This document shows positions 3,757-10,757 of a stretch of 64,000 nucleotides of DNA, piece after piece. Source of the DNA: a virus; the IMG/VR virus record IMGVR_UViG_3300034073_002131, positions 1-64,000 of that record. One strand, written 5' to 3'. The position numbers and the translations under genes were made by a program. Below the pieces are notes generated by a model that was given only the letters and a program-made list of their open reading frames with translations, was not told the origin of the DNA and searched no databases. The first letter of the stretch is position 1. Each line of letters opens with the position of its first letter.

Positions 3757-3785
3757 TTGATTTTACTAGTATAGCCGTGTATAAT
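3757..3785 (+). promoter_or_regulatory. Sigma70-type promoter
   Basis: TTGATT-17 nt-TATAAT. Confidence 0.7.
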
Positions 3786-3816: not shown

Positions 3817-4002
3817 ATGACAAAACAAGAAGCACTACTAATACTTCAAGCTCTGCCGGACGACACCGAAGTAACCATTATTTTAGGTAAACACTCCCAA
3901 CCAAATCGCTGGCAGATGCCGTACACAATATCCTATCCACCAACACCTTATTGGCAAGACCCTTATAAGGTAACTTGTACTAGCTATGAAACCAAAACTT
4001 AA
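3817..4002 (+). CDS. Hypothetical protein
   Basis: ORF downstream of promoter. Confidence 0.55.
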   Translation: MTKQEALLILQALPDDTEVTIILGKHSQPNRWQMPYTISYPPTPYWQDPYKVTCTSYETKT

Positions 4003-4108
4003 ACCTCGTAATCCCTATGTGGCACTAGCACACAAACGACGTGCTGGCACACATACCAAAACCCACAAGCAGGTTCGTGGTCAACTCAATCGCAAACTGG
4101 ATGCATAA
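3986..4108 (+). CDS. Small basic protein (KPRNPYVA..RRAGTH), 40 aa
   Basis: Read directly, not in ORF track; stop is U8-A9-A10 of tRNA-Lys. Confidence 0.6.
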   Translation: MKPKLKPRNPYVALAHKRRAGTHTKTHKQVRGQLNRKLDA

Positions 4109-4170
4109 CTCAACGGTAGAGTAACCGGCTTTTAACCGGTAAGCTGTGGGTTCGATTCCCTCTGCATCCA
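4099..4170 (+). tRNA. tRNA-Lys(TTT)
   Basis: Cloverleaf, CT-TTT-AA loop; followed by CTA rather than CCA. Confidence 0.92.
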
Positions 4171-4233
4171 CTATATTAAAACACATTACTAAGAGTCCAG
4201 GTTCATAGCGTGGCATAGTGTGTTCCAATATGG
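4171..4233 (+). ncRNA. Stem-closed cassette A6 (unknown)
   Basis: ctatattaaaacacatt / agtgtgttccaatatgg stem, similar to A1 and A3. Confidence 0.55.
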
Positions 4234-4332
4234 AAGGGTTGCTAATATTGGCCTTAGGGCGAGCCTTATAAACTCGTAAGCACTGTCTAGATAAGGCAGT
4301 TAATGTGGGTTCGATTCCCACCCCTTCTACCA
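4232..4332 (+). tRNA. tRNA with TAT (Ile) anticodon and long variable arm
   Basis: ggaaggg/cccttct acceptor, CT-TAT-AA loop, ctgtct/aggcag variable helix, GGTTCGATTCC, ACCA. Confidence 0.8.
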
Positions 4333-4337
4333 TCAAT

Positions 4338-4431
4338 AGTGAGTTGGCTGAGCGGCTTAAGGCAGCGGTTTGCTAAACCGTCGATTCGGGTCACCCCGGG
4401 TCCGTGGGTTCGAATCCCACACTCACTGCCA
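4338..4431 (+). tRNA. tRNA-Ser(GCT)
   Basis: Cloverleaf, long variable arm, GCCA. Confidence 0.95.
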
Positions 4432-4442
4432 CGGAGAATACT

Positions 4443-4748
4443 ATGAATTACTCTACAGAAACGCTTATAGCAGCACTAGATGCTATAATTATTAAAGCAA
4501 AAAATGTTAAAAGGGGCGATAGCGTTAGCTGGAATTCAAGCGGCGGTACTGCTCGTGGCAAAGTCACCAAAGTAATTACAGATGGCGAAGAACAAGTTCC
4601 GGGCAGTAGTTTTAAGATTACCGGAACGCCTAATGATCCCGGTGCCTTAATTAGAGTCTATCGCGAAGAGGATGGCAAGTACAAGCCTACAGATACCATT
4701 GTAGGACATAAAGTAAAAACTCTAACAAAAATTCCTGCACTGGATTAA
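4443..4748 (+). CDS. Tudor/SH3-like protein (DUF2945/HVA1-like)
   Basis: GDSVSWNSSGGTARGKV and VGHKVKTL motifs. Confidence 0.65.
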   Translation: MNYSTETLIAALDAIIIKAKNVKRGDSVSWNSSGGTARGKVTKVITDGEEQVPGSSFKITGTPNDPGALIRVYREEDGKYKPTDTIVGHKVKTLTKIPALD

Positions 4749-4750
4749 CC

Positions 4751-4903
4751 ATGCCTTGCTATAAATGTTCAAATGGTAAGTATAAATATGGTCAACGTGG
4801 CAACTGCCAGTTTGACACCTTAGAGGCTTGTAAAGCTGCTGAAGCAGCTATTCATGCTCGTGAGTCCGAAAAACCTAAAAAAGAACAAAAACCTAAAAAA
4901 TAA
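4751..4903 (+). CDS. Small Cys-containing basic protein (MPCYKCSNGKYKYG), 50 aa
   Basis: Read directly, not in ORF track. Confidence 0.6.
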   Translation: MPCYKCSNGKYKYGQRGNCQFDTLEACKAAEAAIHARESEKPKKEQKPKK

Positions 4904-4905
4904 AT

Positions 4906-4982
4906 GCACCTATCGTCTAGTGGCCTAGGACAACTCCCTTTCACGGAGTAGATCGCGGGTTCGAATCCCGCTAGGTGTGCCA
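4906..4982 (+). tRNA. tRNA-Glu(TTC)
   Basis: Cloverleaf, CT-TTC-AC loop, GCCA. Confidence 0.94.
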
Positions 4983-4986
4983 TATA

Positions 4987-5065
4987 CTGAGTGTATTGTC
5001 AGCCCGGTTAGACGGCCGAGCTTGGAACTCGGAGGCCGCAGGTTCAAATCCTGCCACTCAGACCA
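4987..5065 (+). tRNA. tRNA-Pro(TGG)
   Basis: Cloverleaf, CT-TGG-AA loop, C1-G72, ACCA. Confidence 0.93.
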
Positions 5066-5070
5066 GATAC

Positions 5071-5146
5071 GCCGCTTTAGCTGATGTGGTCATAGCATGG
5101 GTCTGAAGAGCCCGGGAACCTGGTTCGATCCCAGGAGGCGGTACCA
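5071..5146 (+). tRNA. tRNA-Phe(GAA)
   Basis: Cloverleaf, CT-GAA-GA loop, ACCA. Confidence 0.93.
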
Positions 5147-5150
5147 CTAC

Positions 5151-5225
5151 ACCGGATTAGCTCAGTGGTAGAGCAATGTTTTGATAAAGCAGAGGTCACT
5201 GGTTCAATCCCAGTATCCGGTACCA
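5151..5225 (+). tRNA. tRNA-Ile(GAT)
   Basis: Cloverleaf, TT-GAT-AA loop, ACCA. Confidence 0.92.
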
Positions 5226-5226
5226 A

Positions 5227-5343
5227 TTTGAGTTAGCTATAGGACTCAAACCACTATAGCCGTTTACTATCACCGACAAAGATAGCGTCATCCATAACAG
5301 ACGATACGGGTTATGCCGGACAGGTAACCGGCTTTTTCTTTTT
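5227..5343 (+). ncRNA. Double-pseudoknot RNA ending in a terminator-like hairpin
   Basis: tttgagt/actcaaa with gctatag/ctatagc; cgtc/gacg with cataac/gttatg; gccgg/ccggc plus T-run. Confidence 0.5.
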
Positions 5344-5369
5344 ACACACACAACACACAAGGTCTTAAC

Positions 5370-5609
5370 ATGCCGACTAAAAATCCCTATGAAATCCGCA
5401 CTGAGTTGCTGCAACTTGCTCAGGGCTATCTTCAACAACAGTTTGAAGCTAACAAACAATTTGCAGAACAAACCTTTCACCAAATGGTAGAACTTGGTAA
5501 AGTTCAGCCTGAAGATTGGGCTAAGCATATGCCCAAGTTTTACGACTTTAAAGACATTTTAGAGAAAGCCAAAGAACTATACGGCTTTGTAAATAATGAA
5601 AGTCGCTGA
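5370..5609 (+). CDS. Conserved phage protein (KNPYEIR.ELL family)
   Basis: ORF with CA-rich leader and AAGG RBS. Confidence 0.75.
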   Translation: MPTKNPYEIRTELLQLAQGYLQQQFEANKQFAEQTFHQMVELGKVQPEDWAKHMPKFYDFKDILEKAKELYGFVNNESR

Positions 5610-5754
5610 TATGTGGCAGCGCGTCCTGGAATTTGTTCGTCCGTACACGTTCGAGGATTATGTCAAAGAATACGGTCCTAAAGATCATAAAGAACTAGAA
5701 GAACTAGAAAAACGTTGGCTAAGTACTAGTAACTGGTTCAATCGTTCACAATAA
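5596..5754 (+). CDS. Small protein, DUF3563-like (52 aa)
   Basis: Read directly: MKVADMWQRVLEFVRPYTFEDYV..D..ELEELEKRW. Confidence 0.5.
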   Translation: MKVADMWQRVLEFVRPYTFEDYVKEYGPKDHKELEELEKRWLSTSNWFNRSQ

Positions 5755-5761
5755 CAATTTT

Positions 5762-5835
5762 CGCGGGATAGAGTAAAGGCAATTCAGGAGTCTCATAAGC
5801 TCCAGATGGGGGTTCGATTCCCTCTCCCGCAACCA
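5762..5835 (+). tRNA. tRNA-fMet(CAT), initiator type
   Basis: C1-A72 mismatch, CT-CAT-AA loop, ACCA. Confidence 0.88.
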
Positions 5836-5845
5836 AGGACCACAT

Positions 5846-6304
5846 ATGAGTGCAACAATTAAAAACTTAGAAAGTGCCCTAGCTGGTGAATCTATGGCAC
5901 ATATTAAATACTTATACTTTGCAAAACTTGCTGAAGAACAAGGCTTTTGGGAAGTAGCAGACCACTTCTACTGGACTGCAGATCAGGAGATTAAACACGC
6001 TTGGGGTCATCTTGAGTTGCTGATCGGCAAGCCTAATGTAGTAGAGTCTCTTGAGATGGCAATTGCTGGCGAAACTTATGAGTATACACAAATGTATCCT
6101 GAGTTTAAGCAGATTGCCACGGCTGAGCAAAATCTAAAAGTTGCCGCAGAGTTCAAAGAGCAAGAAGCAGAATCGCAAGATCATGCTCAGCAATTTGCTG
6201 AAATTCTACAAAAAGCAGAAAAGCGATTTGCAGCCCTTGCTAAAGTCGAACAAAAGCACGCTGAAGCCTATAAACAAATTCTTAAGGGAGTAGACCATGA
6301 GTGA
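5846..6304 (+). CDS. Rubrerythrin (ferritin-like diiron domain)
   Basis: NLESALAGESMAH, EIKH, GETYEY..MYP, E..H diiron motifs. Confidence 0.9.
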   Translation: MSATIKNLESALAGESMAHIKYLYFAKLAEEQGFWEVADHFYWTADQEIKHAWGHLELLIGKPNVVESLEMAIAGETYEYTQMYPEFKQIATAEQNLKVAAEFKEQEAESQDHAQQFAEILQKAEKRFAALAKVEQKHAEAYKQILKGVDHE

Positions 6305-6440
6305 AGAACACGTTTGTGTAGTTTGCGGCTGGGTTTACGAAGGCAGCGAGCTTGACGAAGGCATTCACTGGAACGACCTTGAGCATGATTTTGAGTGTCC
6401 AGAGTGTGGCGTAGGTAAAAGCGATTTTGAAGTAGTTTAA
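6297..6440 (+). CDS. Rubredoxin (47 aa)
   Basis: Read directly: CVVCGWVY...W.DL..DF.CPECGVGKSDF. Confidence 0.9.
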   Translation: MSEEHVCVVCGWVYEGSELDEGIHWNDLEHDFECPECGVGKSDFEVV

Positions 6441-6451
6441 ACCTACTAATC

Positions 6452-6525
6452 CTCCCTATAGTGTAATGGCAGCATACCAGTCTCCAAAACTGTTGGTTGC
6501 GGTTCGAGTCCGTATGGGGAGGCCA
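6452..6525 (+). tRNA. tRNA-Trp(CCA)
   Basis: CT-CCA-AA loop, G73, CCA. Confidence 0.92.
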
Positions 6526-6539
6526 AGAAAATTTTTGTC

Positions 6540-6568
6540 TTGACCCTAAATCGCAGATTTGCTATAAT
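6540..6568 (+). promoter_or_regulatory. Sigma70-type promoter
   Basis: TTGACC-17 nt-TATAAT with extended TG. Confidence 0.8.
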
Positions 6569-6597
6569 ATTATTTCTGTGACAGTTTAGGAATCCAA

Positions 6598-6813
6598 ATG
6601 CAAGCATTAAATCAAGTTACTAGTCCTATGTTCTTGTTGCCTGCCTATGGCCGCCAGTATCGAACCCGTGAGCAAGTGCTCCGCGACTGGCAAGGGGGTA
6701 AAGACTTTCAAATTGAGGGTGGCCCCTACTGCTCGATTCGCGACCTTGACCTAATGCACAAGCAGTTTCAGAATATCTATATCCTGTACGACAGGGGAAC
6801 TGTACTAGTATAA
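6598..6813 (+). CDS. Hypothetical protein (PAYGR.Y...DW..GKDF family)
   Basis: ORF with AGGA RBS downstream of promoter. Confidence 0.7.
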   Translation: MQALNQVTSPMFLLPAYGRQYRTREQVLRDWQGGKDFQIEGGPYCSIRDLDLMHKQFQNIYILYDRGTVLV

Positions 6814-6818
6814 TTTAA

Positions 6819-6904
6819 GCCCCTGTGGTGGAATAGGTAGACACAAGGGACTTAAAATCCCTCGCTGAAAATGCGTGCCGGTTCGACTCCGGCCGGGGGC
6901 ACCA
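6819..6904 (+). tRNA. tRNA-Leu(TAA)
   Basis: CT-TAA-AA loop, long variable arm, ACCA. Confidence 0.95.
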
Positions 6905-6919
6905 CAGTTAGGAACTTAA

Positions 6920-7117
6920 ATGAAATACCCGTATGCTACGCTTAATATGTGTCTACGCAGTATGCTAGGCTCGCAAGAACTAGTAGACCGGTGGTACGAA
7001 TCGCCTAATCGTGCGTTTGATATGCAAACTCCGCTTCAAATGCTTGAAAGTGGTGACGAACCCCGTAGAACAGTATATAAATATATCCTAGCACAACTTA
7101 ACTATATTCCACAGTAG
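6920..7117 (+). CDS. Xre/MbcA/ParS antitoxin C-terminal-like domain protein
   Basis: LGSQELVDRWYESPNRAFDMQTPLQML pattern resembles DUF2384. Confidence 0.6.
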   Translation: MKYPYATLNMCLRSMLGSQELVDRWYESPNRAFDMQTPLQMLESGDEPRRTVYKYILAQLNYIPQ

Positions 7118-7182
7118 CTCAGCGGTAGAGCAGTTAACTGTTAATTAATTGGTCGTTGGTTCGATCCCAGCCTGTGGAGCCA
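7108..7182 (+). tRNA. tRNA-Asn(GTT)
   Basis: CT-GTT-AA loop, GCCA. Confidence 0.94.
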
Positions 7183-7184
7183 AG

Positions 7185-7258
7185 TGGGGTATAGTGAAAC
7201 GGTATCACACAGGATTTTGATTCCCATATTCTTGGTTCGACTCCAAGTACCCCTGCCA
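7185..7258 (+). tRNA. tRNA-Gln(TTG)
   Basis: TT-TTG-AT loop, GCCA. Confidence 0.92.
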
Positions 7259-7264
7259 CAAATC

Positions 7265-7735
7265 ATGAAACAATTCGACCTAGAAGAAATCAAAGAGTTT
7301 ATTAGTGCTCAAAGCCCAGACACCAAGATATACTTAGGCGCAGATAGTGAGCGTGTAAGTGGTGGTGATTGTTGGATGGCTGAATACTACTTAGCCGTCG
7401 TAGTACATCTAGAAGGCAAGCACGGCTGTAAAATATTTGGTCAGATTACTCGTGAGCGAGACTACGATCAGCGACAGGATAAACCTGCACTCCGACTTAT
7501 GGGTGAAGTTTATAAAGTAGCCGAACTATTTAATGAACTAAGCGACGTCTTACAAGACAGATATGTAGAAGTACACCTAGATATTAATCCAGATGATCGT
7601 TACGCAAGTTCACAAGTAGTATCGCAAGCTATTGGATATATTCGCGGTACGTGCAACATAGAAGCACAAGTTAAACCTCAAGCATTTGCAGCAAGTTACG
7701 CAGCAGACCGACTAAAATTTATTCTTTCAAACTAA
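7265..7735 (+). CDS. RNase H-like YkuK (DUF458) family protein
   Basis: IYLGADS, RL..EV, EVHLDINP, KP.AFAAS..AD motifs. Confidence 0.8.
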   Translation: MKQFDLEEIKEFISAQSPDTKIYLGADSERVSGGDCWMAEYYLAVVVHLEGKHGCKIFGQITRERDYDQRQDKPALRLMGEVYKVAELFNELSDVLQDRYVEVHLDINPDDRYASSQVVSQAIGYIRGTCNIEAQVKPQAFAASYAADRLKFILSN

Positions 7736-7736
7736 A

Positions 7737-7958
7737 ATGACTAAAGACCGCTTTGATCTTGAACAAGAAATCCTAGATTGCTGGCATATCACTGATGATC
7801 TACAGACTATTATGGAAACAGATAGTCTTAATCTTAGCGACGATGTGCATAATCTCCTACTTGGACTTAAGACTCTTTATCACCTTAAGTTTGAGCGTAC
7901 TTTTGCAACATTTGAGCAGTTAGTTGCCCAACGCAAGCTAGACCAACGAATTATGTGA
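7737..7958 (+). CDS. Conserved phage protein (DRFDLEQ.I..CW family)
   Basis: ORF; stop lies inside tRNA-Cys. Confidence 0.7.
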   Translation: MTKDRFDLEQEILDCWHITDDLQTIMETDSLNLSDDVHNLLLGLKTLYHLKFERTFATFEQLVAQRKLDQRIM

Positions 7959-8031
7959 CGGTGTTGCTGAACGGCTAGGCTGCAGTCTGCAAAACTGTGT
8001 TATGTGGGTTCAAGTCCCACCCGTCACTCCA
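7955..8031 (+). tRNA. tRNA-Cys(GCA)
   Basis: CT-GCA-AA loop, U73, CCA. Confidence 0.92.
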
Positions 8032-8035
8032 CACT

Positions 8036-8110
8036 GCCCCTTTAGCTCAGTGGTAGAGCAGCCGCCTTGTAAGCGGCAGGTCATCAGTTCGAATCCGATA
8101 GGGGGCACCA
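8036..8110 (+). tRNA. tRNA-Thr(TGT)
   Basis: CT-TGT-AA loop, ACCA. Confidence 0.94.
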
Positions 8111-8122
8111 CTAGGTATATGT

Positions 8123-8509
8123 ATGAACGAAGAACTTAAAGATTCCCTAAGTGAAATTGGCCGGGCATGGAACGAGGCTATGGATGCTATTGAACAAGCT
8201 AGCGAACGGTACTGGAATAGTTTAACTAAAGAACAACAGCTTGATGCGTTCTGTGCAGTATGCCGCCGCATCTACAAAGGTGACATTGAGGACAAAGGCA
8301 CTTACAGGTATGTCCTATACAACGTATTTGGTTTTGGTCCTGAAGCATACGCACAAGCACAAATGGCAGGATACCTGACTATTCATAACAGCATTTTTGA
8401 TGCTGATCACGATGACAACTTGCTAACTAAATTTGCTGAGTTTTGTGGGCTTGATGAGTCAAAAGTTAGTGAGTTTTGGAATCAGCATTCTTGGGCACAA
8501 AACCCATAA
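8123..8509 (+). CDS. Conserved hypothetical phage protein
   Basis: GTYRYVLY..FGFGP.AY motif. Confidence 0.75.
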   Translation: MNEELKDSLSEIGRAWNEAMDAIEQASERYWNSLTKEQQLDAFCAVCRRIYKGDIEDKGTYRYVLYNVFGFGPEAYAQAQMAGYLTIHNSIFDADHDDNLLTKFAEFCGLDESKVSEFWNQHSWAQNP

Positions 8510-8833
8510 TATGATCGTATGAAGTTGACCCAAAGGTGCTTTGGACGCGGGTTCGACTCCCGCCTGGTCCACCATAGATACATTACACCATTAACGCCAC
8601 GGGGTTATCTAGAGCTGCAGCTCGAAAAGCACACTGTGAGAAGTGCAGATAACAGTAGTGTATCTTTGATGGGCCAGTCATGGTTTCGACAGGGCAATGA
8701 GTAGCAATACAGACGATCCGACACAGATAGTCGTTAAAAGTAAACAAAAACAAACGCAAACGATGAAACGTTCGCATTAGCCGCCTAAACTCGGCTTAGG
8801 GTTCCAGGTTATCCTCGTAACAGAAAACCTGGA
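8510..8833 (+). ncRNA. ssrA: Circularly permuted (two-piece) tmRNA, tag ANDETFALAA
   Basis: Acceptor piece (GGAC-gcggg-TTCGACT-cccgc-ctggtcc-ACCA, ends 8574) precedes the coding piece (gggccag..GGTTTCGAC, starts 8671); G3-U70; tag frame 8756-8788. Confidence 0.9.
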
Positions 8834-8890
8834 CTTAAATGGCCATTTGGCATTTTTATTAACAATTCTTGCTCAATCGAGGAGAATAAG

Positions 8891-9331
8891 ATGACACTAA
8901 AAGATATTAATAAATACTTTCTAGGCTTTGATGAAGCTCAGGATCGCATTAACAAATTGCATACGCAAATGATTGCTAAGGCAAATGTTAACTATCCGCC
9001 TTATAATGTTCGTAAAACAGACGATCATAAATATCTCTTAGAACTAGCCGTTGCTGGGTTTAGGGAAAGTGAGATTAGTCTGGAAGTATCAAAAGGTGAA
9101 CTTGTAATTACTGCTCAAAAGTCTGAGCAGGAACAAGATAGTGAATATAAAGGCTGGATTCATCAAGGTATTGCCTACAGAGGCTTTACTCGTACCTTTT
9201 TCCTAGATAATCAGTATGAAGTCCTACATGCCGAGCTTAAAGACGGCTTGTTAAAAGTATACCTAGGCTTGCAAGAAACCATGAAGCCTAAGCGTATTCC
9301 TATTGGTGGACAACAGCATCTTGAACTTTAG
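8891..9331 (+). CDS. Small heat-shock protein Hsp20 (IbpA-like)
   Basis: NYPPYN, ELAVAGF, HQGIA.R.F.R.F, LKDGLL motifs. Confidence 0.92.
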   Translation: MTLKDINKYFLGFDEAQDRINKLHTQMIAKANVNYPPYNVRKTDDHKYLLELAVAGFRESEISLEVSKGELVITAQKSEQEQDSEYKGWIHQGIAYRGFTRTFFLDNQYEVLHAELKDGLLKVYLGLQETMKPKRIPIGGQQHLEL

Positions 9332-9419
9332 AAGCGTGGTCGAGTGGTTTAAGGCACCGGTCTTGAAAACCGACGATTCCGTAAGGGGTCCGTGAGTTCG
9401 AATCTCACCGCTTCTGCCA
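9330..9419 (+). tRNA. tRNA-Ser(TGA)
   Basis: CT-TGA-AA loop, long variable arm, GCCA. Confidence 0.95.
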
Positions 9420-9423
9420 ACAC

Positions 9424-9451
9424 AGAGGGTGCCCAGCACCCTCTATTTTTT
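9424..9451 (+). terminator. Intrinsic terminator
   Basis: agagggtgc-cca-gcaccctct plus T-run. Confidence 0.7.
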
Positions 9452-9587
9452 AAACTTGCGCCAATGAACCAAACAAAAATTCCGCCCAGTACTGGCTATA
9501 TCATCCCTATAGCAACTAAAATGTTCCTAAATTGGACTGTGGATGAGTGGGGTTTCTGGAATGTAGAAGTGCTAGTTTTAGACTAAT

Positions 9588-9770
9588 ATGATTTCACCCT
9601 GTATTAAAATATGTAAGCTAGACCCTAAACTGCAGATATGTATTGGCTGTTGGAGAACTAGGGAAGAAATTCAGGACTGGACAACCTACACAGATGAACA
9701 GCGACAGAAAATAGTAAATAGTCTTGCTCAACGATGGGCTAAACTAGCGGGTATAGTGTTTAACGGTTAG
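9588..9770 (+). CDS. DUF1289 Cys-rich (predicted Fe-S) protein
   Basis: SPCIKIC......C.GC.RT..EI..W. Confidence 0.85.
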   Translation: MISPCIKICKLDPKLQICIGCWRTREEIQDWTTYTDEQRQKIVNSLAQRWAKLAGIVFNG

Positions 9771-9824
9771 CACGCCAGTCTTCCAAACTCGAAGTGAGGA
9801 GTTCGAATCTCCCTACCCGCTCCA
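9747..9824 (+). tRNA. tRNA-Gly(TCC)
   Basis: CT-TCC-AA loop, U73, CCA. Confidence 0.93.
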
Positions 9825-10393
9825 TGAAAAAAATTATACTTTCCCTATTCGACTACAGCGGTAATTGGCCCAAGTACTACCGCGACAGCGGCCTATACGA
9901 TGTATATCAAGTAGACCTTAAACTTGGCCTAGATATACTTGATATAAATCCTGGTGAACTGCCACAGCCTATACACGGTATCTTAGCCGCTCCACCTTGC
10001 ACAGACTTTGCTAGTAGTGGAGCGCAATACTGGACGCAAAAAGATAGGGACGGTCGTACCCAACAAAGCCTACAACTAGTAGATAAAACCTTAGAGATTA
10101 TAAGTTATCACGAACCCAAATGGTGGGTAATTGAAAATCCTGTAGGCAGACTTGCAAAATTACGTCCTGAACTAGGTACCCCTTGGTATTTTCAGCCGTG
10201 GTGGTTTGGTGACGCCTACACCAAGAAAACAGGTTTGTGGGGCACATTTAATCGTGACCTACCACAGAGTCCAGTCGATCCCGACCCTAAATCGCCAATA
10301 ATGCGGTTAGGCGGTAAATCAGAACGAACCAAAGAATTGCGAAGCATGACTCCGCTTGGGTTTGCTCTTGCATTCTACTTAGCAAATCCCTAG
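9824..10393 (+). CDS. DNA cytosine-C5 methyltransferase (small phage type)
   Basis: LSLF..SG motif I, PPC catalytic motif, ENP motif; ATG overlaps the tRNA CCA. Confidence 0.8.
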   Translation: MKKIILSLFDYSGNWPKYYRDSGLYDVYQVDLKLGLDILDINPGELPQPIHGILAAPPCTDFASSGAQYWTQKDRDGRTQQSLQLVDKTLEIISYHEPKWWVIENPVGRLAKLRPELGTPWYFQPWWFGDAYTKKTGLWGTFNRDLPQSPVDPDPKSPIMRLGGKSERTKELRSMTPLGFALAFYLANP

Positions 10394-10466
10394 TACCTTA
10401 GCTCAGCGGTAGAGCGTCTCGTTTACACCGAGAGGGTCGGGGGTTCGAACCCCTCAGGTACTACCA
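10392..10466 (+). tRNA. tRNA-Val(TAC)
   Basis: TT-TAC-AC loop, ACCA. Confidence 0.94.
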
Positions 10467-10469
10467 AGC

Positions 10470-10757
10470 ATGCAACCCAAAGACACAGTACAAACTATCA
10501 ACTTTAAAGGTTATACGAATAACAAGTGCGAGTTCTTTCCTTGCCATACAGGAGTTAAAAAAGAATTTAACTGTTTATTTTGTTATTGCCCCCTAGTATT
10601 CCTAAAATGCCCCGGACCGTACAAAGTATTCCAAGACAAAAATGGCATTACCAGAAAAGATTGTAGTGCTTGTATCCTACCACATAACGGTATAGAACAA
10701 TCTTGGCGGTTTATTCAAGACTGGTTGGAGCGTCCCGAACCTTGGGATTATAAGTAA
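10470..10757 (+). CDS. Cysteine-rich small domain protein
   Basis: N..CEFFPCH....FNCLFCYCPL...KDCS.C..PH. Confidence 0.85.
   Translation: MQPKDTVQTINFKGYTNNKCEFFPCHTGVKKEFNCLFCYCPLVFLKCPGPYKVFQDKNGITRKDCSACILPHNGIEQSWRFIQDWLERPEPWDYK

Follow-up and report, generated by a model that had tools for sequence, protein, structure and literature searches.

Reading frames that end at or inside the next tRNA gene on the same strand are known from bacteriophages T4 and T5. In T4, maturation of tRNA-Arg was proposed to sever the stop codon from the segB mRNA, directly behind the last sense codon, and so to lower expression (Brok-Volchanskaya et al. 2008; PMC2330249), and the same tRNA-cut idea is cited there for F-TflI/II of T5 (PMC2330249). 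In bacteria, overlaps between coding sequences (CDSs) and genes for tRNA or transfer-messenger RNA (tmRNA), hereafter t(m)RNA genes, have been surveyed across 2031 genome projects, with that of Carsonella smpB/ssrA among the cases (Hudson, Lau and Williams 2014; PMC4131195). Those with the CDS upstream were very rare: 115,660 t(m)RNA genes yielded 250 of them (PMC4131195). The E. coli secG-leuU co-transcript joins an mRNA to a tRNA, followed by a terminator, and is separated by RNase P (PMC2241853). The products of arfA and brfA, in turn, are made from non-stop mRNAs, the former through an RNase III hairpin and the latter through a terminator (reviewed in PMC3989581 and PMC8012679). Here we have analysed a stretch of 64 kb (the window), which is the first part of one 98,028-bp viral contig (IMG/VR record IMGVR_UViG_3300034073_002131) and in which six open reading frames (ORFs) have their stop codon inside the next tRNA gene or straddling its start.

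The initial annotation of the window had located these six stops, and every coordinate agreed with ARAGORN and with direct reading of the sequence. The ORFs overlap the tRNA genes by 10, 10, 4, 2, 24 and 2 nt on the same strand, which places them in the class of CDS-upstream/tRNA overlaps, and each terminates at its first in-frame stop. Because the stop sits inside the tRNA, ORF and tRNA must be co-transcribed, and RNase P cleavage at tRNA +1 would then take the stop away and leave a stop-less mRNA. This part of the interpretation is sound as logic and has already been published for T4, T5 and bacteria. The annotation went further and saw in all six overlaps a selected off-switch or timer and a reason for carrying ssrA, the tmRNA gene. 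That extension did not hold for the set; one junction, from ORF 3986-4108 into tRNA-Lys, does look selected. Our preferred reading, to which we assign a probability of about 60%, is that five overlaps are packing by-products in co-transcribed tRNA-mRNA operons and that the sixth, ORF 3986-4108, represents a stop-less peptide family with an arfA/brfA-like design.

The basic peptide gene running into tRNA-Lys

ORF 3986-4108 encodes a peptide of 40 residues with an isoelectric point of 11.9, seven Lys and five Arg, six of the seven Lys codons being AAA, and with the core KPRNPYVALA..RRAGTH.K..K..R. No match to it was found in Pfam, NCBIfam, PHROG or PDB. Out of 1.8 billion cluster representatives, 197 were retrieved by a profile search at E <=0.001; they share the core KPRNP[FY]V.LA..RKAGSH.K..K..R, and many of them carry heterogeneous tails that resemble read-through of tRNA sequence. 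A Pfam scan of 49 family members gave no match (0 of 49), and the ESM Atlas returned unnamed clusters only, along with a weak DUF7230 lead at 0.89. The peptide family is uncatalogued, large and widespread, and it is the part of this locus worth following. T5 was considered as a further carrier and rejected: the gene upstream of its tRNA-Lys, T5.065, bears no relation to the peptide, and no member of the family was found in T5.

The DNA of 93 viral loci was fetched and yielded 54 unique peptide cores. Of these, 43 run into a tRNA-Lys(UUU) gene that starts 84-98 nt past the RN motif, and tRNA-Lys(UUU) was the partner in 74 of the 77 tRNA-fused peptide loci. All three registers into the tRNA are used by the viral cores (17/14/12), and 20 different tRNA-Lys acceptor strands occur among them. 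Counted from the tRNA-Lys start, the distance to the first in-frame stop is 10 to 188 nt, and in 12 cases this stop is beyond the tRNA. With every register in use, the stops variable and the acceptor strands diverse, what is conserved is the junction between the peptide core and tRNA +1, and not the stop codon. This junction looks selected for stop-lessness. The more distant relatives of the window peptide (56-73% identity) hold the +10 register despite acceptor stems as different as GGATGCA, GGAACTA, AGACGCG and GGACGTA, and their last two residues vary with the acceptor stem.

In the bacterial members, the ORF runs stop-less into a hairpin of ~25 bp with seven compensatory pairs, as seen in an alignment of 15 betaproteobacterial loci out of 25 fetched (Rhodocyclaceae, Burkholderiaceae, Oxalobacteraceae and others). 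The family therefore has the ArfA non-stop layout, with no usable stop ahead of either the tRNA-Lys or the hairpin. In a chromosomal subfamily (L112-L133, on contigs of betaproteobacterial metagenome-assembled genomes), read-through of the hairpin gives rise to the database pseudo-tail ...AKT.KQSPESWHK.IS.EC.SAM.... Some betaproteobacterial loci have a tRNA-Pro or tRNA-Phe ~175 nt past the peptide core.

The conserved part of the window peptide ends exactly at tRNA-Lys +1, and RNase P cleavage at 4098|4099 would leave an mRNA ending in ...AAA CU, without a stop. Maturation of tRNA-Lys should hence create a programmed non-stop mRNA, and the non-stop route would be the designed one. Under an arfA/brfA design, the product would accumulate only once trans-translation is saturated. 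By this analogy, the role of the peptide is probably ribosome-associated and of the rescue type. A more specific proposal, which we put forward tentatively and regard as possible at most, is that the peptide would be a back-up rescue or ribosome-plugging factor gated by tRNA-Lys maturation, paired with a replacement tRNA-Lys because defences that cut tRNA-Lys (PrrC, PARIS) would stall ribosomes, and forming a two-tier kit with the tmRNA.

The peptide would be linked to ribosome rescue, not specifically to the phage's own tmRNA. The permuted tmRNA was present in 16/22 peptide-bearing records and in 11/20 controls picked by their methylase, just 3 of those carrying the peptide; a specific peptide/phage-tmRNA link was rejected on this comparison. 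Two related phages, L244 (G338) and L249 (G001), hold both a tmRNA and the peptide/tRNA-Lys module. The tmRNA of G001 was missed by ARAGORN and scored 77.9 bits with the Rfam beta model, slightly below the cutoff.

The same ORF could instead be a Lys-rich leader that senses tRNA-Lys supply, with read-through ribosomes unfolding the tRNA, blocking RNase P and so auto-regulating tRNA-Lys. The near-exclusive partnership with tRNA-Lys(UUU) and the seven Lys codons in 40, mostly AAA, are what one would expect of such a leader, and phage tRNA-Lys reportedly counters defences that cut tRNA-Lys. However, the invariant residues of the family are other than Lys (R, N, G, H and A), bacterial members have a hairpin in place of tRNA-Lys, and some phage members have no tRNA at all. 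We consider a leader function unlikely, and the arfA/brfA-like design is preferred in what follows.

Overlap frequency, packing and the phage tmRNA

The view that all six genes carry a selected off-switch or timer, and that the load of non-stop mRNA explains the tmRNA in the same cluster, has several points on its side: the mechanism is logically valid and was earlier proposed for nuclease genes of T4 and T5, the overlaps are kept in close relatives, the tmRNA tag ends in LAA as a proteolysis tag, and the stop at tRNA-Cys positions 2-4 survives allele replacement. Nevertheless, the frequency tests that the annotation had proposed showed, once run, that overlaps are no more frequent than compaction would give and do not correlate with ssrA. 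Genome-wide, CDS-to-CDS overlaps accounted for 35/102 same-strand junctions (35/62 of those with a gap <=15 nt) and CDS-to-t(m)RNA overlaps for 6/14 (Fisher p=0.56). Both counts come from crude gene calling on the 98-kb genome, and the second omits ORF 3986-4108 and includes a tmRNA-boundary case rejected later (see below). The CDS-to-tRNA overlap rate was 20/54 in tmRNA-positive and 10/27 in tmRNA-negative records, which is 37% in both (odds ratio 1.0). This comparison covered 14 tRNA regions, including 20-kb regions from 12 further related phage records, and ORFs of >=45 residues; it is one of regions rather than whole genomes, with some records incomplete and the ORFs not individually verified.

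The same conclusion emerged from T5, in which no tmRNA was found and yet four CDS-to-tRNA overlaps exist: T5.069 reaches 24 nt into tRNA-Asn, hegC 14 nt into tRNA-Ser(GGA), hegD 23 nt into tRNA-Gln(CUG) and T5.057 6 nt into tRNA-Met. Two of the window overlaps also vary in a manner that argues against selection for them. Depending on the close relative, the DUF1289 gene continues into tRNA-Gly in one of two frames (+24 TAG or +17 TAA), with unrelated tail sequences. An overlapping tRNA follows the methyltransferase gene in 10/80 homologue loci, corresponding to the clade of the window (>=87% identity) plus one other, and in 66/80 loci no tRNA adjoins the gene. Moreover, these phage groups commonly carry a two-piece tmRNA, whether or not they have the overlaps or the peptide, and it was present (RF04321 above cutoff) in 27/42 aquatic phage records examined; among isolate phage genomes, a tmRNA has been reported in 2.3% (PMC9004378). 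A timer acting on all six genes and justifying ssrA is thus very unlikely, and close to refuted by the tests set for it.

Packing would account for the five remaining overlaps (Xre-like gene/tRNA-Asn, ORF 7737-7958/tRNA-Cys, Hsp20/tRNA-Ser, DUF1289/tRNA-Gly and methyltransferase/tRNA-Val). Operons of this type would be transcribed from sigma-70-like promoters as tRNA-mRNA precursors, and an ORF lacking its own stop before the tRNA would continue to the first in-frame stop, which tRNA 5' ends supply almost immediately. The usual sources would be U8-A9-G/A10, or U(-1) followed by A1G2. In agreement with this, TAG or TAA occupies positions 8-10 in 12/20 tRNAs, T is the commonest -1 base (11/20 tRNAs), and the three tRNAs with A1G2 are all preceded by T, even where no ORF lies upstream, as at tRNA-Ser(GCU). 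The possibility that A1 of tRNA-Ser and tRNA-Val is an adaptation for supplying stops was rejected, given this ORF-less T|AG at tRNA-Ser(GCU) and the occurrence elsewhere of an A1 tRNA-Val behind another tRNA.

Translation of the five genes most likely takes place on the precursor before it is processed. The messages would then be destroyed by RNase P, cutting at tRNA +1, and by RNase E, which cuts just 3' of CCA (PMC2190699). The start and stop codons of the methyltransferase gene are both embedded in flanking tRNAs, the A of its ATG (9824) being the end of the tRNA-Gly CCA, and its message would lose both the AUG and the stop. Stop-less fragments would go to the host or phage tmRNA as a side effect. 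Cleavage may also damp expression, a consequence that would be neither selected for in these five genes nor tied to the phage ssrA. No Shine-Dalgarno sequence precedes the methyltransferase ATG (window 9794-9830), and a further ATG lies at 10470, 3 nt past tRNA-Val. With one ATG sharing a base with the tRNA-Gly CCA and another next to tRNA-Val, several array genes must begin translation within tRNA 3' ends.

At the two T|AG junctions (Hsp20 and methyltransferase), the upstream RNase P product would end in U, from which poly(A) polymerase I (PAP I) might rebuild a UAA. Animal mitochondria, with their tRNA punctuation, reportedly complete stop codons by polyadenylation, as Ojala, Montoya and Attardi are said to have described in 1981. 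The T(-1)|A1G2 geometry is suitable, and PAP I is present in beta- and gammaproteobacteria. However, each of the six stop codons is already complete at the DNA level, unlike the incomplete stops of the mitochondrial type, and T(-1) is simply the commonest -1 base and also precedes the ORF-less tRNA-Ser(GCU). Furthermore, the idea would apply to just 2/6 overlaps, and we know of no polyadenylation-based stop completion in a phage tRNA setting. We regard it as highly improbable.

Several observations weigh against the preferred combination of five packing overlaps and one stop-less gene. Eleven of the 54 unique cores end at a stop of their own, with no tRNA. The closest relatives (L001-L006) have lost the tRNA-Lys by a 117-nt deletion (window 4109-4225) and kept the gene and its TAA. 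In the window itself, transcripts that escape processing would terminate normally, as the stop is just 10 nt inside the tRNA. Similarity of the peptide family to ArfA (PF03889) was not detected in Pfam, NCBIfam or PDB, and hhalign against three ArfA sequences gave a probability of 0.14%, indicating no sequence relation. Regarding the packing side, two strongly divergent tRNA-Cys alleles both place the stop of the upstream ORF at positions 2-4 (TAG vs TGA), and this retention could hint at selection there. The gene call and ORF filters were crude. Metatranscriptome contigs (Logan) of ~90%-identical relatives span several of the ORF-to-tRNA junctions, which is weak evidence of co-transcription, as the RNA-run data consist of contigs only, without ends, strands or levels, and DNA carry-over is possible.

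Regarding the alleles and the deletion, the divergent tRNA-Cys is found in L002 and L004-L006 (at 6691-6766), with the acceptor strand GTAGATG vs GTGACGG in the window. The tRNA-Lys deletion starts at tRNA position 11, and what is left of the tRNA, its first ten bases, forms the last codons and TAA of the peptide gene, like a fossil of the overlap. The depth in the tmRNA bin of the RNA runs probably stems from host tmRNA.

Gene boundaries and organization of the array

All six ORFs are genuine genes, as judged by family match or by codon change that is mostly synonymous. Four gave family matches: Xre_MbcA_ParS_C (9.6e-8), HSP20 (1.4e-13), DUF1289 (1.7e-18) and the phrog_757 methyltransferase (1.6e-39). 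Among relatives, synonymous vs non-synonymous codon changes numbered 9-13 vs 3-4 in ORF 7737-7958, 18-28 vs 3-4 in ORF 6920-7117 and 6-14 vs 2-5 in ORF 3986-4108, the last being under purifying selection. That the overlaps are artefacts of spurious ORFs or misplaced tRNA boundaries, as the two ORFs without family match and an Rfam start for tRNA-Cys 2 nt later than that of ARAGORN might suggest, is refuted by the purifying selection or family match found for all six and by the perfect 7-bp acceptor stem, U73 and CCA that the ARAGORN tRNA-Cys boundary yields, for which it was preferred over the shifted Rfam match.

The coordinates of the features are collected in Table 1. ARAGORN found 19 tRNAs and the permuted tmRNA in the window, the latter confirmed by Rfam. 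The array has 12 CDS-to-t(m)RNA junctions, with gaps of between -24 and +11 nt, and the predicted promoters (3757-3785 and 6540-6568) and terminators (5315-5332 and 9424-9444) bound multi-gene tRNA-mRNA units.

Table 1. Position and main traits of the features of the tRNA-mRNA array.
Feature	Coordinates	Strand	Remarks
Sigma-70-like promoter	3757-3785	+	TTGATT-17-TATAAT; consensus match only; heads first tRNA-mRNA unit
Gene for very basic 40-residue peptide	3986-4108	+	Sole stop TAA 4106-4108 = U8-A9-A10 of tRNA-Lys
tRNA-Lys(UUU)	4099-4171	+	ARAGORN; Rfam 71.3 bits
Predicted terminator	5315-5332
Strong sigma-70-like promoter	6540-6568	+	Predicted; 11/12, extended -10; heads unit reaching the 9424 terminator
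Xre/MbcA/ParS C-terminal-domain protein gene (65 residues)	6920-7117	+	TAG 7115-7117 = positions 8-10 of tRNA-Asn
tRNA-Asn(GUU)	7108-7182	+	ARAGORN, Rfam
Conserved gene without family match (73 residues)	7737-7958	+	TGA 7956-7958 = positions 2-4 of tRNA-Cys
tRNA-Cys(GCA)	7955-8031	+	Perfect 7-bp acceptor stem, U73, CCA
Two-piece (permuted) tmRNA gene	8513-8858	+	Tag ANDETFALAA; acceptor piece ends CCA at 8574, coding piece from ~8671
Hsp20 gene	8891-9331	+	TAG 9329-9331 = T(-1) + A1G2 of tRNA-Ser
tRNA-Ser(UGA)	9330-9419	+	Final gene ahead of terminator
Intrinsic terminator	9424-9444	+	9-bp stem, then T run
DUF1289 gene	9588-9770	+	TAG 9768-9770 = positions 22-24 of tRNA-Gly; tRNA positions 1-21 encode last 7 residues
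tRNA-Gly(UCC)	9747-9824	+	A of CCA doubles as A of methyltransferase ATG
DNA methyltransferase gene (phrog_757)	9824-10393	+	TAG 10391-10393 = T + A1G2 of tRNA-Val
tRNA-Val(UAC)	10392-10466	+	A1-U72 pair

The tmRNA was assigned to its class by scores of 126 bits with RF04321 and 143 bits with RF01850, by the GGGCCAG/CTGGTCC pairing with a G3-U70 acceptor pair and by the tag frame. A seventh overlap, of ORF 8123-8509 with the tmRNA, was rejected as a boundary artefact, with the structured RNA beginning at 8513, 3 nt past the stop. This ORF adjoins the tmRNA without overlap. The Rfam beta_tmRNA model begins with 51 positions of unpaired upstream sequence, which inflates tmRNA gene boundaries and thereby produces false CDS overlaps. 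In the model, these 51 positions (window 8462-8512) are promoter-like, with TTGAC...TATAAT in the consensus. The ARAGORN tmRNA boundary likewise takes in unpaired upstream sequence.

The contig ends were judged to overlap because tRNA-Leu(UAG) is present at both. The closest relatives are IMG/VR contigs of ~97 kb that carry the same array, and the searches are compatible with an uncultured, T5-like phage from lake or freshwater. A 98-nt tRNA of class-II shape with a UAU anticodon lies at 4232-4329; it scored 39 bits in Rfam and was missed by ARAGORN in the window, and ARAGORN calls tRNA-Ile(tat) at the matching site of the relatives L022, L030 and L031. Its sequence is near-identical across all close relatives aligned, with one variable column. 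A weak Rfam tRNA match at 1519-1591 (29.8 bits) was barely above the cutoff and had no ARAGORN call. Between tRNA-Met and tRNA-Trp, at 5846-6440, there are rubrerythrin and rubredoxin genes, and this 612-nt insert is absent from several relatives (L002, L004 and the RNA-run contigs X3 and X7), in which 5839 is joined to 6452.

Comparison with known systems

As a set, the overlaps constitute a useful negative, pointing to packing and not to a tmRNA-linked switch. The tRNA region of T5 is of the same kind as that of the window, and the operons appear densely packed as in T5 and related aquatic tRNA-rich phages. As T4 segB and T5 F-TflI/F-TflII (hegC, hegD), the window ORFs end at or inside the next tRNA on the same strand. 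The T4 and T5 cases are homing-nuclease genes, whereas here the genes encode Hsp20, a methyltransferase, a DUF1289 protein, an Xre-like protein and two small proteins; in addition, this phage has a tmRNA and T5 has none. The mechanism is already in the literature, and these phages differ from the published cases in how densely the overlaps occur. In the window, 6/19 tRNAs are overlapped, and in related phages ~37% of CDS-to-tRNA junctions are, so that about one third of gene-to-tRNA junctions overlap in T5-like and related aquatic phages, roughly a hundredfold the bacterial rate per tRNA gene. Annotators should leave such overlapping genes untrimmed.

The Hsp20, tRNA-Ser and terminator succession has the layout of secG-leuU, with the Hsp20 stop reaching 2 nt into the tRNA. 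The array also shares with mitochondrial tRNA punctuation that tRNAs flank mRNAs and that their excision sets the mRNA ends, and the T|AG junctions resemble incomplete stops. Unlike in mitochondria, the stops are complete in the phage DNA and lie inside the tRNA.

The closest parallel to the sixth overlap is offered by arfA and brfA. As with these genes, the peptide is tiny and basic, and its ORF enters an RNA-processing signal without a usable stop; the bacterial relatives, as arfA, use a long hairpin. The peptide motif is RKAGSH, in contrast to the KGKGSY of ArfA, and on the strength of this analogy we file the peptide as one that may work like ArfA, not as an ArfA. ArfA was found in 0/5 bacterial peptide carriers, which says little against so low a baseline, with PF03889 in just 3/300 genomes sampled from the class. 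If our reading is true, the peptide would open a way to test how phages deal with stalled ribosomes. Unlike in arfA and brfA, RNase P cleavage of a tRNA-Lys gene transcript is the predicted processing signal in the phage, and a stop-less micro-gene fused to tRNA-Lys would then be the third independent case of the arfA/brfA principle and the first one triggered by RNase P and a tRNA.

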